A DNA stretch of 64,000 nt, from the NCBI GenBank assembly GCA_031409275.1, contig JANNXA010000014.1, positions 96,001-160,000 of the forward strand, written 5' to 3'. A model generated the notes under the pieces. That model saw nothing but the letters and a program-made list of their open reading frames with translations. It made no database searches and was not told the DNA's origin. The stretch comes from Planctomycetota bacterium (GTDB lineage Bacteria > Planctomycetota > B15-G4 > SIAN01). The stretch's first letter is position 1; each line of letters starts with the position of its first letter. Position numbers and translations under genes: made by a program. This document shows, in pieces, positions 19,662 through 28,383 of the stretch.

Positions 19662-20915
19662 TCACTCCCGCCAGCGTTGCGCCTCGGGAGTGAACTCGGT
19701 GCGCACCAGACCGCTCGGCGCATCACGCGACGAGATCGTGCCGTCTCCATCGAGGTCGAGACGGCGGAACATCGAGCTGCGACCGGGGTATTCGGCCCGC
19801 GCGATGGAGCCGTTGCCGTCGAGGTCGTAGCGAGTGAAGCAGTCGTCGAAAGCGGCGAGCGGTCCTTCGACGCGAGCGGCAGTGACGGCCGTCTCGAGTT
19901 CGCGCAGATCGAGATCGCCGTCGCCGTTCTCGTCGAACCGGATGCGCGTCGCCGCGAAGCGCGCGAGTTCGATCGTCGATAGGCTCCGGTCGCGATCGCG
20001 ATCGAGGAGCTGCATCGCCGTCTTGGCATCGGCCGCCAGGATCATCGGATAGGGGCCGCCGAATGCCCGCGAGCGCGGCAGCTCGGTCCGGTCGAGCGAA
20101 CCGTCGCCGCTGCGATCGAACAGCTCGATCAGGGGCGTCGGGATCCCGAGCTCCTTGACCGAGACCCCGCCGTTCTTGTCGCGATCGAGCTTGATGAAAA
20201 GCGCTCGCCGGTCCACGGCTAGGGGCAGCAACGACAGCTCGCCAGCGGAAAGGAGGTCGTTGCCGTCAAGGTCGGCGCGCGCATGGGCGAGGCGCGTGAG
20301 CTCGCCCGCATCGAAGCGGCCGTCGCGATCACGATCGAACCGATGCAGGTCACCGCCGCCGACGATCAGCCCCCACTCGAGCGCGGGGTTCGCGGTGCCG
20401 AAACTCGCTTGGGAGCGCGCGACGGGCGCGCGCAGCGCGACGAGGTAGTCGACGATGACGCGCGCTTCCTTGTCGCTGATCGCGGCGTCCTTCTTCTCGC
20501 GCATGCGGCGCACGGTGTCGGCCCAACCCGCCGCGCTCTTCGCCGAGCGCTCGACGCGAGTCTCGTCATGGCAGGCAAGACAACGGCGCTCGAACACTTC
20601 GTTCTTCGTGACCAGAGTTCCGATCGCGACCAGCAGGCGGTCGGGAGCCACCGCTTCGCTCGCCGGTTTGAGCGGCGGCGCTTTCGCGCTGCGGCCGAGC
20701 TCACCGGTCGAAAGCCAGCCATCGAGATCGACGTCCAGCGACACGAACGTCGTCCCCGACCCCTTCCACTCCGACCGGCCGACGAACCCGTTGCCGTCGG
20801 TGTCGAGCGTCTTCAGGAACTGGCGCCCTGCCGCGCTCTCGCCCTGCGCCGCCGCCACCGAGGCGCAGAAAACGATGACGAGCGCGCTGGCCAGCATCGA
20901 CGGCGGCTGCATCAT
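19662..20915 (-). CDS. Secreted multi-EF-hand protein with one c-type heme
   Basis: Signal peptide; ten DxDxDG-like loops; CLACH followed by W..TVRRM. Confidence 0.8.
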   Translation of the reverse strand: MMQPPSMLASALVIVFCASVAAAQGESAAGRQFLKTLDTDGNGFVGRSEWKGSGTTFVSLDVDLDGWLSTGELGRSAKAPPLKPASEAVAPDRLLVAIGTLVTKNEVFERRCLACHDETRVERSAKSAAGWADTVRRMREKKDAAISDKEARVIVDYLVALRAPVARSQASFGTANPALEWGLIVGGGDLHRFDRDRDGRFDAGELTRLAHARADLDGNDLLSAGELSLLPLAVDRRALFIKLDRDKNGGVSVKELGIPTPLIELFDRSGDGSLDRTELPRSRAFGGPYPMILAADAKTAMQLLDRDRDRSLSTIELARFAATRIRFDENGDGDLDLRELETAVTAARVEGPLAAFDDCFTRYDLDGNGSIARAEYPGRSSMFRRLDLDGDGTISSRDAPSGLVRTEFTPEAQRWRE

Positions 20916-23851
20916 CGATCGACTCCCAACAACCCGAAGCCGCGCACATCCTCCGCGCTGAGCGGAACGCGCAGCACGCGCAGCAGCTCCTGCGCATCGA
21001 GGAAGCGGGCGCCTTCGTGCGAGACGTCCTTCAGGCGCCGACCATCGGGGTCGCTCATGCGATCGAGCGGGAACTCCTCGAGCACGAGGTCGCGCACGCG
21101 CAGCCCCTCGCCGAACAACGGGCCGATGATCAGCGGCTTGTCGCTCGACGAGGTGTCGAGCACGGATGCGGCCGAGCGGCCGGCGACGAGCGCGCTGCGG
21201 CGCAGGAACGGCGGGTTGTACCAGGCGGCCATCACCAGCCGGAACGCTCCGTCCGGCATCGGCTCCGCCGCGACGATCTTCGGCGACTCGGGATCGGTGA
21301 TGCGCACGATCGCGACCGCTCCCGGCGTCATCGTCTCCTCGATCGGCTGCACCGCGAAGCAGGCGTAGTCGTGCTCCTGCGTCGGCAGGTCGCCACCAGG
21401 ACTGCCAAGGTCGAATCGCGACAGCACCTGCACGTCGAGCACCCGGTTGGTGCTCTCCGGTCGGGCCGACGTCGCCGGCGACTCGACGCGCACCTCGGGC
21501 GGCGGGAAGAGCCGCTCCGGCTGGGTCGGTTCGGTCACATCGAAGAGGAAGAAGCCTTGCAGACCGCCGGCGACCGCCGCGATCTTGCGCGCCTCGGTGC
21601 GTTGACCGAGTCCATCGTCGGGGCGCGCGTACTGGAAGAGGACCTTCACCGCGTGGACATCATCCGCGCGAGTCGGGTCGAGGTTCGGATCGAGGTGACC
21701 GACGAGATCGACTTTGCCCGCGGTCGCGACATCGAAGATCTTCACGCCGGCGGCGCCGTCCGCGACGTAGAGGTGCGGCCAGCTCAGATCGAGCCCGACC
21801 GCCTCGTGCGTGGGCAGCTGCGACAGCGCTTTCGGCTTGGCCGGCTCGCTGACGTCGAAAAGGCGCACGCCGCCGCGACCATCGGCGACGTAGAGGACGC
21901 TGCCGCGCACCAGCAAGGCGCGCGGATCCGTCGTCTCCAGGAAGGCGACGCGTTCGGGGAAGGCCGCGCGACGTGCGTCGACGATGGCGACGCCCGCGCC
22001 GGCGATGGCGACGAAGAGCGTCTCGAAGCGCCCCTGCAGGTCGTCGCAGCGCGCCGCGATCGCGACCCCGCCCGGCAGCGCCAGCGATGCAAGCGGGGTC
22101 GACGCGTCGAGATTCTCGCGATCGACCGCGACGAGGTGGACGCCGCGCAGATCGAGGATCGCGGCGACCTCGCGCGACAGCCCGAAGCTCGGAGAGCCGA
22201 GCCCGACCGTGGCCGGCGAGCGGTGGCACTCGACGCAGCCGCGCGCCTGCGCGCGCGTGGTGTGCAGCTGATGATGGATCATCGTCATCCCGGAGAGTCC
22301 GGCGGCGGTCACCGGCAGCTCCTGGTCGAGGACGAGCGCGCCGGTCGCATCGTGAACGCTGCCCATCGTCGAGAAGCCGACCAGGAACGGCGCGACCTTC
22401 CCTTCGTCGTTCCAGCCGAAATAGAAGTGCTTGTAGGTCGCGAACACCTTCTCCTGCGTGGAGCAGCGTCCGGGTGTCCGGTCGCCGGTGACCAGATCGA
22501 GCTGCGAGAAGGATTCGTTGCGGTCGAAGTGGAAACCGAAGAAGTTGGCGTTCCACGCGGCGTGGCAGGTGTAGCACTCCAGCCGCTCGTGTTGCGGCGT
22601 CATCGCGCGCGCCGCCTTCGCGTTGTATTCGGGCCGCGATGGATCGATGACGTGAGTCGCCTGCGGGATGAAGTGGCGCTTGCCGTCGACCTTCGAAACC
22701 AGGTACGTGAGCCCCGCCTCGACGTGCAGATGGTCGAGCTTGCGGCCGCGAGAGGTCGTCAACGAGGAGACCTCGTCGAAGGTGCCGTGGCAGTCGGTGC
22801 ACTCGATCTCGACGGCGTGCTCCATGAAGCCCCAGATCTCGCCATCCCCCATCACGTCGCGCACGGTGTGGCAATCGACGCAGTGCATGCCGCGTTCATG
22901 GTGGACATCGGGCGGGACGATCGAGCGGTCGTTCACGTAGAAGACGCCGTTCTGCAGCGCCGCGGTCGTTCCGGGCACTTCCGGTCCCGCCGGCATTCCG
23001 GGCGCGAGCTGCGCCAGGCCGCGAAACTGCAGCCCGATCGAGGCGTCGCCGTAGTGGCAGTGCACGCAGGTCTGCGTCGGCGGCGCCGACACCATCGCGT
23101 GGCGCTCGGGATGACCGGGCTCGAAACGGTCGACGGTCGGATCGGCGCTGCGAGAGATGCCGTCGTCAGCGTAGGTCACGTGGCACGCGGAGCAGCCGGC
23201 TCCGCGGTAGTTGCCGTCCTGGCCGAGGCGGCCGCGCACGGCGGTGCCGCCCCCCCATAGATGGCATTGCATGCAGCTCTTGCGGCCAAGGTCGGTGACG
23301 TGACCCGCCAGCGAATCGCGACGCGTCGGGTCGTCGGCGAGCGGGAACCCGGGCAGCTCGGCGTAGGCCCCGTTGGGGCGACTGCGATCGCGATCGACCA
23401 CCGGGAAGATGCTGTAGCGGGTCCGGCGCTCCTTGCTGAGGCCGTTCTCGTAGAGGCTGTCGGAAAGGTGGCCGGCCGTCGTGCAATGCAGCGACTTCAG
23501 CAGGTTCTCGCAGTCGTTCGTGTGGCAGCTGCCGCAGACGCGGCTGGCCACGCGCAGGTCGCCCGGATTGACGAACTGGATCCAGGCTGGATCGTAGTCG
23601 AGCGGCAGCAGCCGCTCGTCGTTGGGCGGCGTCGCGCGCGGCTTCACGTGCGCTTGGACCTTCGTCGTCGCCTTCGCGTCGCCGCCGTGGCACGCCGTGC
23701 AGGTCAGCGGCTGCCAGGGGTGCATCTCCTCGATGCCGCCGTGACACGCCGAGCAGCCCTCCGCTTCCGGCCCCTTCGGTTGCTGGGCGCGCGCGGCCGG
23801 CAGCAGAGCGAGCAGGAGCGTCGCGCTCCACGCGACGACGCGGGTCGCCAT
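20912..23851 (-). CDS. Decaheme cytochrome c fused to an LVIVD-repeat domain
   Basis: Signal peptide; 10 CxxCH motifs counted; LYVADG..GV..FDVS.P repeats. Confidence 0.88.
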   Translation of the reverse strand: MATRVVAWSATLLLALLPAARAQQPKGPEAEGCSACHGGIEEMHPWQPLTCTACHGGDAKATTKVQAHVKPRATPPNDERLLPLDYDPAWIQFVNPGDLRVASRVCGSCHTNDCENLLKSLHCTTAGHLSDSLYENGLSKERRTRYSIFPVVDRDRSRPNGAYAELPGFPLADDPTRRDSLAGHVTDLGRKSCMQCHLWGGGTAVRGRLGQDGNYRGAGCSACHVTYADDGISRSADPTVDRFEPGHPERHAMVSAPPTQTCVHCHYGDASIGLQFRGLAQLAPGMPAGPEVPGTTAALQNGVFYVNDRSIVPPDVHHERGMHCVDCHTVRDVMGDGEIWGFMEHAVEIECTDCHGTFDEVSSLTTSRGRKLDHLHVEAGLTYLVSKVDGKRHFIPQATHVIDPSRPEYNAKAARAMTPQHERLECYTCHAAWNANFFGFHFDRNESFSQLDLVTGDRTPGRCSTQEKVFATYKHFYFGWNDEGKVAPFLVGFSTMGSVHDATGALVLDQELPVTAAGLSGMTMIHHQLHTTRAQARGCVECHRSPATVGLGSPSFGLSREVAAILDLRGVHLVAVDRENLDASTPLASLALPGGVAIAARCDDLQGRFETLFVAIAGAGVAIVDARRAAFPERVAFLETTDPRALLVRGSVLYVADGRGGVRLFDVSEPAKPKALSQLPTHEAVGLDLSWPHLYVADGAAGVKIFDVATAGKVDLVGHLDPNLDPTRADDVHAVKVLFQYARPDDGLGQRTEARKIAAVAGGLQGFFLFDVTEPTQPERLFPPPEVRVESPATSARPESTNRVLDVQVLSRFDLGSPGGDLPTQEHDYACFAVQPIEETMTPGAVAIVRITDPESPKIVAAEPMPDGAFRLVMAAWYNPPFLRRSALVAGRSAASVLDTSSSDKPLIIGPLFGEGLRVRDLVLEEFPLDRMSDPDGRRLKDVSHEGARFLDAQELLRVLRVPLSAEDVRGFGLLGVDR

Positions 23852-23859
23852 CGCGCGGC

Positions 23860-25020
23860 TCAGGAAAAGAGCCGCGGCAGCAGTCGCCCGCGAGCGAGCG
23901 GCGACTCGACGCCGAGCAGCTTGCAGACGGTCGGACAGACGTCGATGGTGCTGCAATCGGTCGCGATCGTCTTGCCCGCCTTGAAGTCGGGGCCCCACGC
24001 GACGCATGCCACCTTGTTCAGCTCGTCGGACGCATCGCCGTGGTCAAGGCCGTTGCGCTGGTTCAGGTTCTTGTCGCGGCCGAACTCCGGCAGGACGAGG
24101 ATCGACGTCGAATCGCGCAGCTGCGCGTCACCGAGTACGGTGTCGAGGATGCGGCCGAGCTCCTGATCGTTGCGCTTGATCACATCGACGTACGCGTTGA
24201 AGGAGCCGTGCGCGACGTCCGCATTCGTGAGCGAGACGCACGACAGCACCGGTCGGAAGATCTGCAGGATGTTGCCCGCGATGCGCAGCGCCTTGGCGTC
24301 ACCGGAACCTGGTCCGGTGAGGCTCACGGTCTCGCTCTGCGTGATCTCGTCGACGATGTACTTCTCGACGCGCGCGGCCGTGACCTCGTCGTTCAGCGCG
24401 GGACCGGTGACCCCGTCGCCGATCGCGCCACGCAAGCGATTCAACGCCGCGTACGCCTTCGGATCATCGGCGCGCGGCGTCCCGAACTGGCCGAGCACCT
24501 CGCGGAACTCCTGGTTGAAGATGCCCTCGCCGTCGATCACGTTCGCGCCGAAGGGAGCGCCCCAGCCGCGATTCAATCCGTACGCGAAGTTGACCCCCTG
24601 TGACCCGTTGTTGGCCGACAGCCAGGCGCCGCTCGCCGGGAGCTTCAGCTCCTTGCGGACGTACTCGAAGATGGTCGGGTTGAAGCCGCGCGAGTTCTCG
24701 CGAATGCCCATGTACTCGGGCACTCCGGTGAGGATCGACAGCGACGCGCCATAGTGGCCTAGATTCGCGGCCGCGCAGTTCGGGAAGACGACGCCCTGCG
24801 CCGCGAGCCGCATCAAGTTCGGCACGTTCGCTGGCGTGCCGATCGTGTCCTTGCTGCGAACGCCGCCGGCGAAGAGGACGAGCACGACCCGCTTCGTCTT
24901 CAGCGCGCCCACCGGCGGCGCCGCGAAGAGGGGGTTGCTGAGGGCGAGCGCGCTGGCCGCGACGGCACCCGCCTGCAGGAACCCGCGGCGCGTCACGGAC
25001 GGCAACGATGGCGTGTCCAC
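23860..25020 (-). CDS. Tat-exported DUF1501-like / alkaline-phosphatase-fold protein
   Basis: TRRGFLQ Tat motif; LVLFAGGVR, ADVAHG, PEFGRD, GLDHG; GAGGAG RBS before the GTG start. Confidence 0.75.
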   Translation of the reverse strand: MDTPSLPSVTRRGFLQAGAVAASALALSNPLFAAPPVGALKTKRVVLVLFAGGVRSKDTIGTPANVPNLMRLAAQGVVFPNCAAANLGHYGASLSILTGVPEYMGIRENSRGFNPTIFEYVRKELKLPASGAWLSANNGSQGVNFAYGLNRGWGAPFGANVIDGEGIFNQEFREVLGQFGTPRADDPKAYAALNRLRGAIGDGVTGPALNDEVTAARVEKYIVDEITQSETVSLTGPGSGDAKALRIAGNILQIFRPVLSCVSLTNADVAHGSFNAYVDVIKRNDQELGRILDTVLGDAQLRDSTSILVLPEFGRDKNLNQRNGLDHGDASDELNKVACVAWGPDFKAGKTIATDCSTIDVCPTVCKLLGVESPLARGRLLPRLFS

Positions 25021-25030
25021 GGTCAGCTCC

Positions 25031-26152
25031 TCAGTAGGACTGGTACTCGGAATGGGTCAACAACGCGCGCAACACGAGCCTCGCGTCCGCGCCACCCTCG
25101 ATCTCGCGCACGAAGGCGGAACTCTCCGCCGCCGTCGGCGGTCGGGCAAGGAAGTGCAGGAATCGATCGGCCACCTGCTCGGCAGGCGTCGCACCGTTAC
25201 CCAGCGCCCCATCCGCGACGCCGGAGTCGAGCATCATCTTGATCAAGACCGAGCGAAGCGGACGCGAGTCAGAAAGCGCCAGGAGCGCGTTGCGGCAGCG
25301 GCGGAACTCCTGGTAGTCCGGCACGCGGCCGAGCAGATCGGCGTAGAGCGACCGCACGAAGACGCGATCGCTCTTCGGGCGCGGCTGCGCAACGCGCTGC
25401 TCGTACGCGAGCGAGCCGAGCCAGCCAGCGACGAGGTCGGGCCATGACAATGGCTCGTTGCGCAGCCGCTCGGAGTCGGCGGCCAGCCGCTTCTTCGGCG
25501 GCGCGTCGCCGAAGATCGCCGTGAAGCGACGCTCGACGAAGCAGGGCTCACTCTGTGGATGCTCCGCGGCGATGCGCACGAAGTCCGCCTGGCTCGACCC
25601 GCTCTTCCCAAGCACATTCGCCGGGTAGCCGTCGTACATCCGCTTGGCTGCTTCCAGCAGCGCCGGCTCCTTCTGAACGGTGATTCCGAGCAATTGCTCA
25701 AGCACCACGGTCGCGAACGTGTCGTTTCCAGGGTTGCGTGCGTTGAAGAACTGGCTCGAAACGATCTGGCGGAGCATCTCGCGGATGGAGAGCTTGCGTC
25801 CAGCGAGCAACTGCGGGATCGCCGCGAACGCATCGGTCGACGGCCGGAAGTTGTCGATCAACAAAAAGTAGAAGAGCTCTTCTTCGTAGCAGCACTCCGC
25901 TGCGACGAAGCTGGACGAGAACTCACGGATCCACTCGCCGCGCGGCTTGCCTTGAGCGGCCTGCCACTCGGACGGCAGTGGCGTACGGCCAGCGAGGTCG
26001 ACGGTCGCGGCGCGGATGAAGCGACGGTCGAGCGGTGCCAGCGTCAACGACCGCTGCAACTCGGCGCCCGGAGCCTCGAGCGCCGCGGCGGCGATGACAT
26101 CTCGCGGGCCTGGCGCGAAGCGCCGAATCGAGAGGCTGACTGGATCGATCAT
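25031..26152 (-). CDS. DUF1549/DUF1553-like helical protein
   Basis: FIR...DLAGR.P..E, FVRSLY.DLLGR.P..E, FL.FL.RPPT..E, ALLT..EY. Confidence 0.7.
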   Translation of the reverse strand: MIDPVSLSIRRFAPGPRDVIAAAALEAPGAELQRSLTLAPLDRRFIRAATVDLAGRTPLPSEWQAAQGKPRGEWIREFSSSFVAAECCYEEELFYFLLIDNFRPSTDAFAAIPQLLAGRKLSIREMLRQIVSSQFFNARNPGNDTFATVVLEQLLGITVQKEPALLEAAKRMYDGYPANVLGKSGSSQADFVRIAAEHPQSEPCFVERRFTAIFGDAPPKKRLAADSERLRNEPLSWPDLVAGWLGSLAYEQRVAQPRPKSDRVFVRSLYADLLGRVPDYQEFRRCRNALLALSDSRPLRSVLIKMMLDSGVADGALGNGATPAEQVADRFLHFLARPPTAAESSAFVREIEGGADARLVLRALLTHSEYQSY

Positions 26153-26290: not shown

Positions 26291-26328
26291 AAAAAAGGAG
26301 GCCCGAGCTCGCAAGCCCGGGCCTCCTT
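26291..26328 (-). terminator. Rho-independent terminator after the thioredoxin-like paralog pair
   Basis: AAGGAGGCCCGAGCT-CGCA-AGCCCGGGCCTCCTT inverted repeat with an A6 run (U tract on the minus strand). Confidence 0.85.
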
Positions 26329-26366: not shown

Positions 26367-27113
26367 TTACGCCTTGGTCACCTTCCGCTCATCAGCCCAC
26401 TTCTTCTTCAGGGCCGCTTCACGCGTCTCGACCGCCTTCATCTGGTCGTTCAGCGCCTTCTCTTCCTTGGCCCATTCCGATTCCTTCGCAACCGTGGACT
26501 TGGCCTTCTTGGTCGCGAGGGCGGAACGCTTCGCCTCGATCTGGTCGATCTCGGTGAGGATGGTCTTGGTCTCCTTCACCACCGTCTCGAGGTCGTTCTT
26601 GTACGTCTTCGCAGCCGCGCGCTTCATCAGCGTGAAGAGCTTCGACGGCGAGATGTCCTGTCCCTCGACCGAGCCGATCTTCGCGCCCGTCGTGTCGACC
26701 ACGACCATGCGCGGCAGCTCCTTGCCGCCGAGGATCTTCCAGTACGGATGGCTGTCGGTGATCTTGTTGCCGTTCAGCTTGATCTGCTGAAACATCGTCG
26801 AGCCGATCTGGACGTTCTCGTCCATCAGCGTCGTCGCTTCGACGTTCTTCATGAACTGCGCGTGGTCCTCGAGCGCGCTGGTCAGGAAGACGATCGCCGG
26901 CTTGCCGGAGTTCTTGTAGCTGTCCGGGAGCGAGGAGTAGAGGCTCTCGGGGTTGAATCCTTCGTAGGAGTTGAACTTGGGCTCATCCCACTTCAACTCG
27001 ATGCGCGCCATACTGGCGCCGCAGCGTCCGCCGCCTCAGCCACCCTTCAGATCGGGCGTCAGGGCGAGGGCGGCCACCACCGCCATCACACCCGCAAGCG
27101 CAAACCTCTTCAT
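26367..27113 (-). CDS. Candidate exported selenoprotein 1 (in-frame UGA at codon 26), thioredoxin-like body plus coiled-coil tail
   Basis: GAAGGAGAGGA RBS; MKRFALAGVMAVVAALALTPDLKGG-UGA(27038-27036)-GGGRCGAS in frame with ORF 26367..27011. Confidence 0.75.
27002..27023 (-). promoter_or_regulatory. SECIS-like hairpin
   Basis: UGCG-G-CGCCA/GUA/UGGCG-CGCA; loop starts 23 nt after the UGA with G first. Confidence 0.6.
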
Positions 27114-27361
27114 CGATCCTCTCCTTCGTTGGCCACAGCTGAGCGGAGGGGGCATCCGTCCGCGGCTGAGCGATGTCGCTTCGATCGTTGATTACGCCAT
27201 CCCGGCTGAAGCGGCGCAAGGTCCTGTGACCGTCTGCTCCGCGGCGACCGGTGCTCGTCCGCCGAGAATCACCGGCACGCCTGTCCATGCCTTCCATCGT
27301 AAAAGACGATCAAAGAAATTTGTATCTCCATGATGTCTCCAACGAGTCGTCGTTCTCGAAT

Positions 27362-28168
27362 TCAGCCCTTCGCAACCTTGCGGTCGTCGCTGAACTTCTT
27401 CAAGAGCTCGGAATCGCGCGTCTGCACGTCCTGCAAGGCCTTGGCGAGAGCGGCCTCCTCGACACCGATCTCCTGCAGCTTCGCGCCCTTCGCAGTCTTC
27501 TTCTGCTCGACCAGGAGCTTCTGCTTCGCCTCGATCTGGTCCATCTCGTCGAGCAGCGAGCGCGTGTCCTTGACGACCTTGTCGAGGTCGGCTTTGTACG
27601 TCTTGCTTGCAGCCTTCTTCATCGACTTGAAAAGATTCGACGCCGAAAGCTCATTGCCTTCAAGGACGCCCGCCTTCTTGCCGGACGCGTCGATCACGAC
27701 CACGCGCGGCAGCGACTTGCCGCCGAGCGTCGGCCAATGCGGGTGGTCCTTCGAGACCTTGTCGCCCTTCATGCGGACCGCGCGGAAGAGGCGAGCGCCC
27801 ACTGCGACGTTCTCGTCGCCGAAGACAGCCGTTTCGAGCTCGGACATCTTCTTCGCGGCATCGGGCAGATCGGTGCCGAGGAAGAGGACGAGCGGCTTGC
27901 CGACTTCGGTGTACTCGGCCGGGAGGCACGAGAAGAAGTTGGTGGCGTCAACGTGGTCGTAGAGGTTGATCTTCGGCGTCTCCCACTTCATCTGGAGACG
28001 CGCAACGCTCGACGTGCCTTGGCGGGAAATACCGCCGCCGCTACGCATTCCACCACCGGATCGGGCGGCTCCGCCGCCCCCACCGCCGCATCAGCCGCCG
28101 CGAAGGTCGGGAGAGAGTGCGAGAGCGGCCGCGACCGCAATCGCTCCACCGAAAAGCCGGATCCGCAT
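27362..28168 (-). CDS. Candidate exported selenoprotein 2 (in-frame UGA at codon 26), paralog of 26367..27113
   Basis: GGGAG RBS; MRIRLFGGAIAVAAALALSPDLRGG-UGA(28093-28091)-CGGGGGGAARSGGG in frame with ORF 27362..28048. Confidence 0.75.
28063..28079 (-). promoter_or_regulatory. SECIS-like hairpin
   Basis: GGGCGGC/GGA/GCCGCCC perfect 7-bp stem; loop starts 19 nt after the UGA with G first. Confidence 0.6.
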
Positions 28169-28383
28169 GTAACGCTCCCTAAGTCGACTCGGCGCCGCTG
28201 GCGGATCGACATGCTTTCGCCGGGCATCCGGCGCAGCGTCCGATCGACGGCGCAATCGGTCTTTTCATAGCAATGGCACGACGAAAAGTGACGGAGGCGT
28301 GTCAAAGCCGCGTTAGTGCGCATTCAGATCCATCGGTGAGGCTCACGCACCGCAATCGGGTCGTCCGATCCGCGCGCGACCAT

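Follow-up and report, generated by a model that had tools for sequence, protein, structure and literature searches.

A stretch of 64,000 nucleotides (nt) from the genome of a Planctomycetota bacterium, here called the window (positions 96001-160000 of contig C14 in assembly G000, which comprises 5.59 Mb in 55 contigs and is 92.9% complete), carries on its reverse strand two tandem paralogous genes, paralog A and paralog B, each of which is broken by a single in-frame TGA at codon 26. We consider it very probable that both TGAs encode selenocysteine (Sec, U), with a little less assurance for paralog B because of the GGA loop of its candidate hairpin. The fuller reading, in which SelB and tRNA-Sec decode the codon with the help of a downstream hairpin and the product is an exported protein carrying a redox-active arm, we regard as likely. 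The redox function itself, once selenocysteine is granted, is a reasoned guess and only somewhat better than an even bet. The selenocysteine reading had been put forward in an original prediction made from the letters of the window, and it is supported by the presence of the Sec machinery in the genome, by a site that is conserved as TGA or Cys among homologues, and by a suitably positioned hairpin.

Two Reading Frames, Each Broken by One TGA

Gene callers report only 26367..27011 for paralog A and 27362..28048 for paralog B, with products of 214 and 228 amino acids which start at Met35 and Met41, respectively, of the longer frames. Re-reading of the sequence confirmed that both frames extend upstream, to ATG codons at 27113 and 28168, with TGA as their only interruption, and that the original prediction had the spacing of the following Cys correct, namely U-x4-C in paralog A and UC in paralog B. 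The upstream starts are led by Shine-Dalgarno-like motifs (Table 1), whereas the called ATG of paralog A, at 27011, has no such motif and that of paralog B, at 28048, has only a weak GGTGG, in agreement with the earlier view that the called starts lack a well-spaced ribosome-binding site. The N-terminus of paralog A reads MKRFALAGVMAVVAALALTPDLKGG-U-GGGRCGAS-MARIELKW and that of paralog B MRIRLFGGAIAVAAALALSPDLRGG-U-CGGGGGGAARSGGG-MRSGG. The peptides preceding the TGA are signal-peptide-like, beginning with MKR (A) or MRIR (B), continuing with a hydrophobic core and ending in (T/S)PDL(K/R)GG, and the two paralogs are 44-46% identical.

It had been foreseen that standard gene callers would truncate such genes, and both the called open reading frames (ORFs) and the database records do begin after the TGA. 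Database homologues, in sets of 50 and 88, are all unnamed or labelled 'hypothetical protein', and those with organism names derive from Planctomycetota metagenome-assembled genomes. The close homologues of paralog A are typically about 214 amino acids long, covering 86% of the query, which corresponds to a cut at the TGA.

Support for the sequence itself came from other sequencing runs. Two DNA runs of the same study (X3 and X4), from samples that were not flagged as a possible source of the assembly, yielded contigs with zero differences over both TGAs, which are therefore not the assembly error that had been considered at the outset. Moreover, a metatranscriptome library from another study (X9) contained a 211-nt contig with zero differences (26996..27206) covering the leader, start codon, TGA and hairpin of paralog A, and a further RNA library (X12) contained the contig of a relative, with six differences, in which the TGA was kept; both libraries hold small shares, in the form of contigs only, and they speak for presence in an RNA library rather than for expression level or transcript ends.

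Conservation of the TGA in the Planctomycetota

When the read-through protein of paralog A (P0001) was used as a query, matches were obtained in 32 of 61 related genomes, and those reaching the N-terminus showed one TGA. A profile built from 23 diverse read-through members (A1), in whose alignment the Sec column is invariant, matched 114 of the 401 genomes sampled from the Planctomycetota, in 86 of 288 genera, and multiple copies in one genome are frequent. The carriers include the closed or near-closed genomes G192, G416, G073, G201 and G292. Among the 150 matches listed, 113 start at or before profile position 10; by hand count, one or more in-frame TGAs are present in 108 of these and absent from five. 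Among close orthologues the TGA is invariant, and the in-frame TGA is conserved in the family far beyond chance.

From these matches 64 distinct family genes were extracted, L022 being left out together with L099, a weak match to a non-member. The TGA stands at the end of the signal segment in 53 of them, Cys in eight and neither in three, a ratio which overstates the shares of the last two classes because matches lacking a stop were deliberately fetched. Homologues thus keep the TGA or carry Cys at its column, as the original prediction had proposed to establish, and TAA, TAG or a frameshift was found at the site in none of the 64 genes. The Cys-forms (L082, L083, L084, L087, L090, L092, L093 and L044) fall in at least four separate places on a quick tree that does not include L044; the latter gene was reassigned from U to Cys by eye, the script having taken a TGA upstream of its start codon. 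In the remaining three genes (L085, L086 and L097) the sequence after the signal peptide is ...AQ-R-G-G-G-R-G-G..., a tip devoid of both Sec and Cys, and the tip residue has therefore been lost in some lineages.

These results bear directly on the possibility that the TGAs are true stops, which either separate a 25-codon upstream ORF from a gene beginning at the annotated Met or mark pseudogenes inactivated by nonsense mutations. Such stops would agree with the short products given by every gene caller and database record. However, the TGA and its frame are conserved in 53 of the 64 genes and across many genera, conservation extends to the residues that separate the TGA from the annotated Met, and in several homologues, such as those reading ...GASSAKLNL and ...SASLAKLT, no start codon follows the TGA. 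Moreover, the annotated Met of paralog A lacks a ribosome-binding site, a signal peptide without a passenger would make no sense, and, in the 24 codons preceding the TGA, variation is highest at third codon positions (17 versus 10 and 11 among orthologues of A, and 20 versus 14 and 8 among those of B). We therefore find true stops barely conceivable.

Selenocysteine Machinery and Other Candidate Selenoprotein Genes

The four genes whose presence had been made a condition of the selenocysteine reading, selA, selB, selC and selD, all occur in the genome, where selA scored 484 bits, selB 334 bits, tRNA-Sec 76 bits and selD, with one in-frame TGA, 338 bits. Across the 401 sampled genomes selA was found in 290, and it was present in 110 of the 114 genomes that are positive for the family versus 180 of the 287 that are negative (Fisher p = 3.7e-14, from a hand cross-tabulation in which kin are not independent). 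In three of the four selA-less, family-positive genomes (G033, G102 and G183, 84-92% complete), selB scores above the curated cut-off. The fourth, G139, has none of selA, selB and selD, and its family match is weak (E = 8.9e-8), with the N-terminus not seen.

Some additional observations were made on the selenoprotein genes of these organisms. In the 90%-complete assembly of G102, where selA was not found, two matches to selD (C261:2594-3517 and C294:17674-18027) both contain an in-frame TGA, and a single contig carries two selB-like genes that exceed the cut-off. In the genome of the window, SelD appears itself to be a selenoprotein, with Sec at the usual SelD site (SSCAG-U-AAK), and its gene (L010, G000:C40:252211-253134, reverse strand) is directly adjoined by selA. 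An unannotated selenoprotein candidate is located at about 150280-151380 on contig C9 of the same genome (L100:1300-2400, reverse strand, with the TGA at L100:1801-1803); it is predicted to be an exported thioredoxin-like protein (MMKTLLAVAATALFASEALA...) with the classical active site F-F-T-S-L-G-U-G-P-C.

A Hairpin Downstream from the TGA

Each paralog carries, shortly after the TGA, a hairpin resembling a selenocysteine insertion sequence (SECIS) (Table 1). The 25-nt core of the hairpin of paralog A has a folding energy of -13.1 kcal/mol (z = -2.51; equally stable folds in 4 of 200 shuffles) and the 23-nt core of that of paralog B one of -15.3 kcal/mol (z = -2.59; 2 of 200 shuffles). The hairpin of paralog A explains the conserved peptide G-A-S-M-A, which it encodes. 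Rules of the bSECISearch type place the apical loop about 16-37 nt from the UGA and require a G among the first loop bases; paralog A, with (A)GUA(U) at +24 to +28, and paralog B, with GGA at +21 to +23, both conform to them, and the putative SECIS of paralog B is the less canonical of the two.

For the family as a whole we applied a positional rule of our own, in which at least five contiguous base pairs enclose a loop of 3-7 nt that contains GU and starts 18-33 nt past the U of the UGA. Such GU-loop hairpins occur at 41 of the 53 U sites, compared with a mean of 7.4 (standard deviation 2.5, maximum 14 of 53) in 200 dinucleotide shuffles. They were found at one of seven Cys sites and at two of 40 terminal TGAs of the same genes, and the background was 10.7% for every seventh position of the same loci and 11.9% for all UGA triplets of those loci. 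The commonest loops at U sites are AGUU (10) and GUA (9). A SECIS-like hairpin, for which a search had been suggested, is thus present and enriched against four controls.

Two further tests do not depend on the choice of hairpins. Among Ser codons, AGU accounts for 30 of 70 (43%) in the loop window versus 35 of 786 (4.5%) elsewhere in the same genes (p = 1.4e-18). An AGU-anchored test was also employed, because covariation among hairpins picked by their pairing would be circular, and it revealed five or more flanking pairs at 26 of the 30 loop AGUs versus 110 of the 2429 other AGU triplets that these loci contain. Among the 30 AGU-anchored hairpins there are 20 distinct stem-loop sequences. 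The geometry of the family hairpins also equals that seen in two other genes of the same genome, namely selD, with CCUG[GUU]CAGG and its loop about 30 nt past the UGA, and the UGPC gene on contig C9, with a 9-bp stem and an AGGU loop at +26 from the UGA.

Given this evidence, we judge it highly improbable that the TGA is read through as Trp, Cys or Arg by near-cognate suppression, or that the recoding signal is unrelated to SelB. The case for selenium is made from sequence, and the loop of paralog B lacks the GU of most relatives, so that there is some room for such alternatives; nevertheless, the occurrence of the family tracks that of selA and selB, homologues exchange U specifically for Cys in several separate places on the tree, and the hairpins share the geometry of the selD and UGPC genes. 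Furthermore, 40 of the 53 U-form genes use TGA as their own terminal stop, which argues against a genome-wide reassignment of this codon.

Predicted Export, Fold and Tip Motifs

Four positions before U, 51 of the 53 genes encode A, L or V, and two positions before it, 37 of them encode G, A, S or C. We infer that signal peptidase I would cut one residue before Sec, leaving a mature N-terminus of the form G-U... or Q-U.... Since U, or Cys in its place, directly follows the hydrophobic segment and is preceded by G in 31 of the 53 genes, one may also imagine that Sec replaces the Cys of a lipobox, with Lgt and signal peptidase II acting on Sec to yield lipoproteins with a selenoether-linked lipid anchor. 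The lipobox follows the pattern [LVI][ASTVI][GAS]-C at the end of the signal peptide, and some members of the family, such as those with ...AGAG-U, fit it if U is read as C. The core of the pattern was, however, found at only eight of the 53 U sites and in neither window paralog, both of which have K or R at -3 and D at -5, and Q occupies -1 in 20 of the 53 genes. A lipid-blocked selenium would, moreover, leave both the second Cys or Sec and the cost of Sec unexplained. On the lipobox count and the failure of both window paralogs, the lipoprotein reading was rejected as very unlikely.

An AlphaFold2 model of A1 (mean pLDDT, the predicted local distance difference test, 86; predicted template-modelling score 0.79) comprises an alpha/beta domain with strands at residues 73-78, 109-114, 135-139 and 145-150 and helices between them, followed by a C-terminal helical hairpin (Table 1). 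Residues 1-8 and 18-28, the latter spanning Sec, have pLDDT values below 50. In a Foldseek search the top match was DsbD-gamma (1uc7_A, E = 6.6e-5, template-modelling (TM) score 0.58 on the target; also 1vrs_D and 2fwf), followed by DsbH, ERp19, AGR2 and thioredoxins, with 14 chains at E <= 0.001. At the level of sequence profiles the thioredoxin-fold protein 3fk8_A was matched (E = 1.3e-4), with YLTSSDEK lying opposite FGANWCTDC, and atlas neighbours beyond the family's own clusters carry Thioredoxin_7 (PF13899) and Thioredoxin_2 (PF13098), at scores of 0.82-0.85 that provide leads only. No thioredoxin model in Pfam or NCBIfam exceeded its gathering score for any of the 23 A1 members, and one database homologue carries a precomputed PF13098 assignment. 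The body of the protein is thus a thioredoxin fold, by a confident model as well as by profile and fold matches, from which the CxxC motif is gone in the branch of the window. After strand 1, where the sister branch has RECxxC, the window's branch has (F/Y)LTSxx(E/D), and the window sequences read FLTSALED (A) and FLGTDLPD (B).

The family shows a deep split, with 99% support, between 26 rows, 25 of which carry L(V/I)(L/M)REC-x-x-C, and 34 rows without this motif that include A and B; the tree is quick and unrooted and makes no claim as to whether the ancestor had CxxC. A and B form sister clades within the genus of the window, and their duplication appears to be recent because the single-copy genes of G005 and G007 branch outside both clades. 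The two genes of the window, whose tips are U-x4-C (A) and UC (B), are a recently duplicated, CxxC-less pair from a freshwater-sediment lineage.

Among the 53 U-forms, the tip motifs are UC in 20, U-x3-5-C in 14, UU in 13, CU in four and a lone U in two. A second Sec or Cys lies within six residues of U in 51 of the 53 U-forms and in 30 of the 31 that lack CxxC; the other 22 carry CxxC, and the tip is kept in both groups. The 13 UU genes (L036, L037, L046, L066, L070, L076-L078, L080, L081, L088, L094 and L095) have two consecutive TGAs, predicted to specify Sec-Sec, and one downstream hairpin.

Proposed Function and Its Main Rival

In the mechanism that we favour, SelB and tRNA-Sec would decode the TGA aided by a hairpin beginning 14-19 nt beyond this codon, still within the coding sequence. 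About the first 24 residues would serve as a signal peptide for the general secretory (Sec) pathway and would be removed by cleavage one residue before selenocysteine, such that the mature periplasmic protein would begin with G-U-G-G-G-R-C (A) or G-U-C-G-G-G (B). The Sec/Cys pair, located at the tip of a disordered Gly-rich arm, would constitute the reactive centre and cycle between selenol/thiol and selenenylsulfide states. The CxxC-less DsbD-gamma-like domain would act as a docking or scaffold module, and the C-terminal helical hairpin may mediate assembly, while in the sister branch with an intact CxxC the arm probably exchanges reducing equivalents with that motif.

A broader proposal, which is possible although we lean against it, is that these proteins constitute a new periplasmic class with the catalytic selenium at mature position 2 on a Gly-rich tether, in the forms U-x4-C, UC, CU and UU. 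The arm would then have superseded the CxxC of the DsbD-gamma-like domain, which was subsequently lost in the branch of the window, and UU would be the first such dipeptide in bacteria, its two UGAs being read by one SECIS.

The main functional rival to the redox arm is a metal or metalloid hook, in which the N-terminal amine, Sec2 and the near Cys or Sec would chelate Ni, Cu, Hg or Cd, or carry selenium or sulfur, with the body serving as a chaperone scaffold; the proteins would still be selenoproteins. A vicinal or near-vicinal second chalcogen, found in 51 of the 53 U-forms, would suit such a role, as would the persistence of the tip where CxxC has been lost. The G-U-x4-C motif presumably also resembles the processed N-terminal nickel hook of nickel superoxide dismutase (NiSOD). 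For other new selenoproteins, CU and CC motifs have been argued to bind metals in a preprint by Haft (10.1101/2022.07.06.499078). Set against this, no metal transporter, chaperone or resistance gene occurs as a conserved neighbour, the body is closest to thiol-disulfide oxidoreductase domains, and the CxxC retained by the sister branch points to redox chemistry. We consider the metal hook unlikely.

Several observations count against an exported selenoprotein with a redox arm. The loop of paralog B, GGA, is G-rich but without GU, and its orthologues likewise have GGG, GGU and GGA; 12 of the 53 U sites, paralog B among them, fail the GU-loop rule. The folding energy of the 54 nt following the site has a mean z of -0.64 at U sites, -1.59 at Cys sites and -1.65 at terminal TGAs, and a 42-nt window of paralog A has z = -0.77. 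Energies taken over a whole window do not discriminate because these GC-rich sequences fold anyway, and for this reason the position- and loop-specific tests were used instead. A scan of the region against Rfam gave no matching SECIS family, only sub-threshold chance matches. Pro occupies the proposed -1 cleavage position in 12 of the 53 genes, a poor fit to signal peptidase I, and the three genes with neither Sec nor Cys (L085, L086 and L097) imply that some members can do without the tip residue. Comparison of the window genes and the family loci revealed no conserved functional neighbour that would point to a pathway. The RNA-library contigs cannot prove transcription, given that DNA may occur in such libraries, and their support for it is weak. 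Finally, selenium in the protein, its export and its cleavage are predictions derived from sequence, and the redox role is assigned by analogy only.

Gene Neighbourhood and Feature Coordinates

The neighbours in the window encode a multihaem cytochrome c, a sulfatase-like protein, a PSCyt2-like protein, a TIM-barrel protein and MutY. Downstream from paralog A, at 20912..26152 on the reverse strand, there are genes for a PSCyt2/DUF1549-like protein of 373 amino acids, a sulfatase-fold (DUF1501-like) protein of 386 amino acids and a multihaem cytochrome c of 1031 amino acids. As listed, the second and third of these ORFs share about 150 nt, and all three are typical planctomycete exported genes. 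No terminator-like site was found between paralogs B and A, and the two may therefore share a transcript, while a strong terminator-like structure directly follows the stop codon of paralog A (Table 1).

Elsewhere, the downstream gene is conserved within family f1 only and family f2 is adjoined by lipoyl synthase. In the CxxC branch, a same-strand downstream neighbour is conserved (P0053; L045:2010-3290, forward strand, and 23 further loci) which is predicted to be exported and is about 390-430 amino acids long. It has no Pfam match and does not lie next to the genes of the window, and it is a possible partner of the CxxC branch.

Table 1. Features of the two interrupted genes and their surroundings; positions are those of the window.
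Feature	Position	Strand	Details	Basis
Paralog A, full read-through gene	26367..27113	-	248 amino acids; ATG 27113; stop TAA 26369..26367	Frame reading; orthologues share architecture
Paralog B, full read-through gene	27362..28168	-	268 amino acids; ATG 28168; terminal stop TGA 27364..27362	Frame reading
Paralog A TGA, predicted selenocysteine	27036..27038	-	Codon 26	Sole break in frame
Paralog B TGA, predicted selenocysteine	28091..28093	-	Codon 26; Cys directly after (G-G-U-C-G-G)	Sole break in frame
Shine-Dalgarno-like AAGGAG (A)	27121..27126	-	7 nt before ATG 27113	Sequence reading
Shine-Dalgarno-like AGGGAG (B)	28175..28180	-	6 nt before ATG 28168	Sequence reading
Paralog A predicted Sec-type signal peptide	27042..27113	-	Residues 1 to ~24: MKR, hydrophobic core, TPDLKG	Residue-register analysis; cleavage predicted
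Paralog A SECIS-like hairpin	27002..27023 (extended stem)	-	GCGCCA[GUA]UGGCGC; encodes G-A-S-M-A	Loop 25-27 nt past U of UGA
Paralog B SECIS-like hairpin	28063..28079, extendable to 28054..28088	-	GGGCGGC[GGA]GCCGCCC	Loop 21-23 nt past U of UGA
Paralog A thioredoxin-like domain (model)	26604..26942	-	Residues ~58-170	AlphaFold2, Foldseek, profile
Paralog A C-terminal helical hairpin (model)	26391..26591	-	Helices 175-205 and 211-241	AlphaFold2
Intrinsic-terminator-like stem-loop and T run	26299..26318	-	Directly after paralog A stop	Terminator scan and sequence

Significance and Comparison with Known Systems

The family has no model in NCBIfam release 20 (June 2026) or Pfam, in which the two ORFs and the 23 A1 members gave chance-level matches only. 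Among the 119 families of the 2026 catalogue, those entered in its Table 1 (PMC13188914) include none with Sec behind a signal peptide, with this domain or with a UU pair, and Planctomycetes are not mentioned in it (0 occurrences). To that extent, the view that the family is not among the described selenoproteins has held. No printed description of it was found in the accessible portions of the literature, including 10.1101/2022.07.06.499078, PMC4807772, the deep-Sep paper (PMC12013277) and PMC13188914, although subscription papers or supplements could hold one; in particular, the S9 Table of PMC4807772, which gives selenoprotein candidates of two Planctomycetes, might list a member.

Confirmation would extend the 119 families and subfamilies of that catalogue by one that is common in the Planctomycetota. 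Its truncation at the TGA in every public record amounts to a systematic blind spot of annotation, since the cut removes both the signal peptide and the reactive residue and the proteins consequently look cytoplasmic and featureless. The unusual placement of Sec, at the predicted mature N-terminus and outside the thioredoxin active site, with UU in relatives, would offer a naturally occurring model for a selenenylsulfide or diselenide arm on a tether. As a case of recoding, it offers a putative SECIS encoded by a low-complexity linker, with the constraint visible both in the G-A-S-x-A peptide and in the rare AGU codon. More generally, the results suggest that selenium use in the planctomycete cell envelope is much wider than annotated selenoproteomes indicate.

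With selenoprotein genes of the fdhF and selD type, the family shares an in-frame UGA followed by a GC-rich hairpin whose apical loop, containing G or GU, lies 21-30 nt after the UGA, as well as Cys-bearing homologues and the presence of selA, selB, selC and selD in the genome. It differs in the lack of an Rfam SECIS match and in the position of its predicted Sec at codon 26 behind a signal peptide; because Sec sits there, the putative SECIS is built from codons of a low-complexity linker, G-A-S-M-A in paralog A and Gly in paralog B.

Known thioredoxin-fold selenoproteins of the UxxC/CxxU kind include, in Table 1 of PMC13188914, Sec-thioredoxin, the PF13098 thiol:disulfide interchange proteins, DsbA/DsbG-like proteins and UGC-TlpA. 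They resemble the present family in their thioredoxin fold, in frequent periplasmic export and in the pairing of Sec with Cys, and the UGPC protein encoded on contig C9 would be a classical member in the same genome. In the family described here, by contrast, Sec would lie outside the CxxC position, 30-90 residues upstream on a disordered N-terminal arm, and the window paralogs have no CxxC.

The best structural matches are to DsbD-gamma and to proteins of the Thioredoxin_7/DsbH type (1uc7_A, 1vrs_D and 2fwf; E = 6.6e-5 to 6e-4, TM score about 0.6 on the target). Identity is nevertheless only 13-20%, T-S-x-x replaces CxxC in the branch of the window, the DsbD membrane domain is absent, and the window family adds a C-terminal two-helix hairpin and the N-terminal Sec arm.

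Mammalian thioredoxin reductase carries a C-terminal Gly-Cys-Sec-Gly arm, in which, as in the G-G-U-C-G-G of paralog B, adjacent Cys and Sec residues are flanked by Gly at a flexible chain end. This tail may serve as the nearest working analogy for electron shuttling by a selenenylsulfide, although it is an analogy and not a homology: in the planctomycete proteins the arm would be at the opposite end of the chain, with the order of the two residues reversed, in the bacterial periplasm and without a flavin/NADPH domain. The recoding and the thioredoxin fold, as predicted, are of the ordinary kind; the departure lies in the position of Sec, on a tether at the N-terminus and away from the active site of the fold, in proteins overlooked by catalogues and annotation pipelines.

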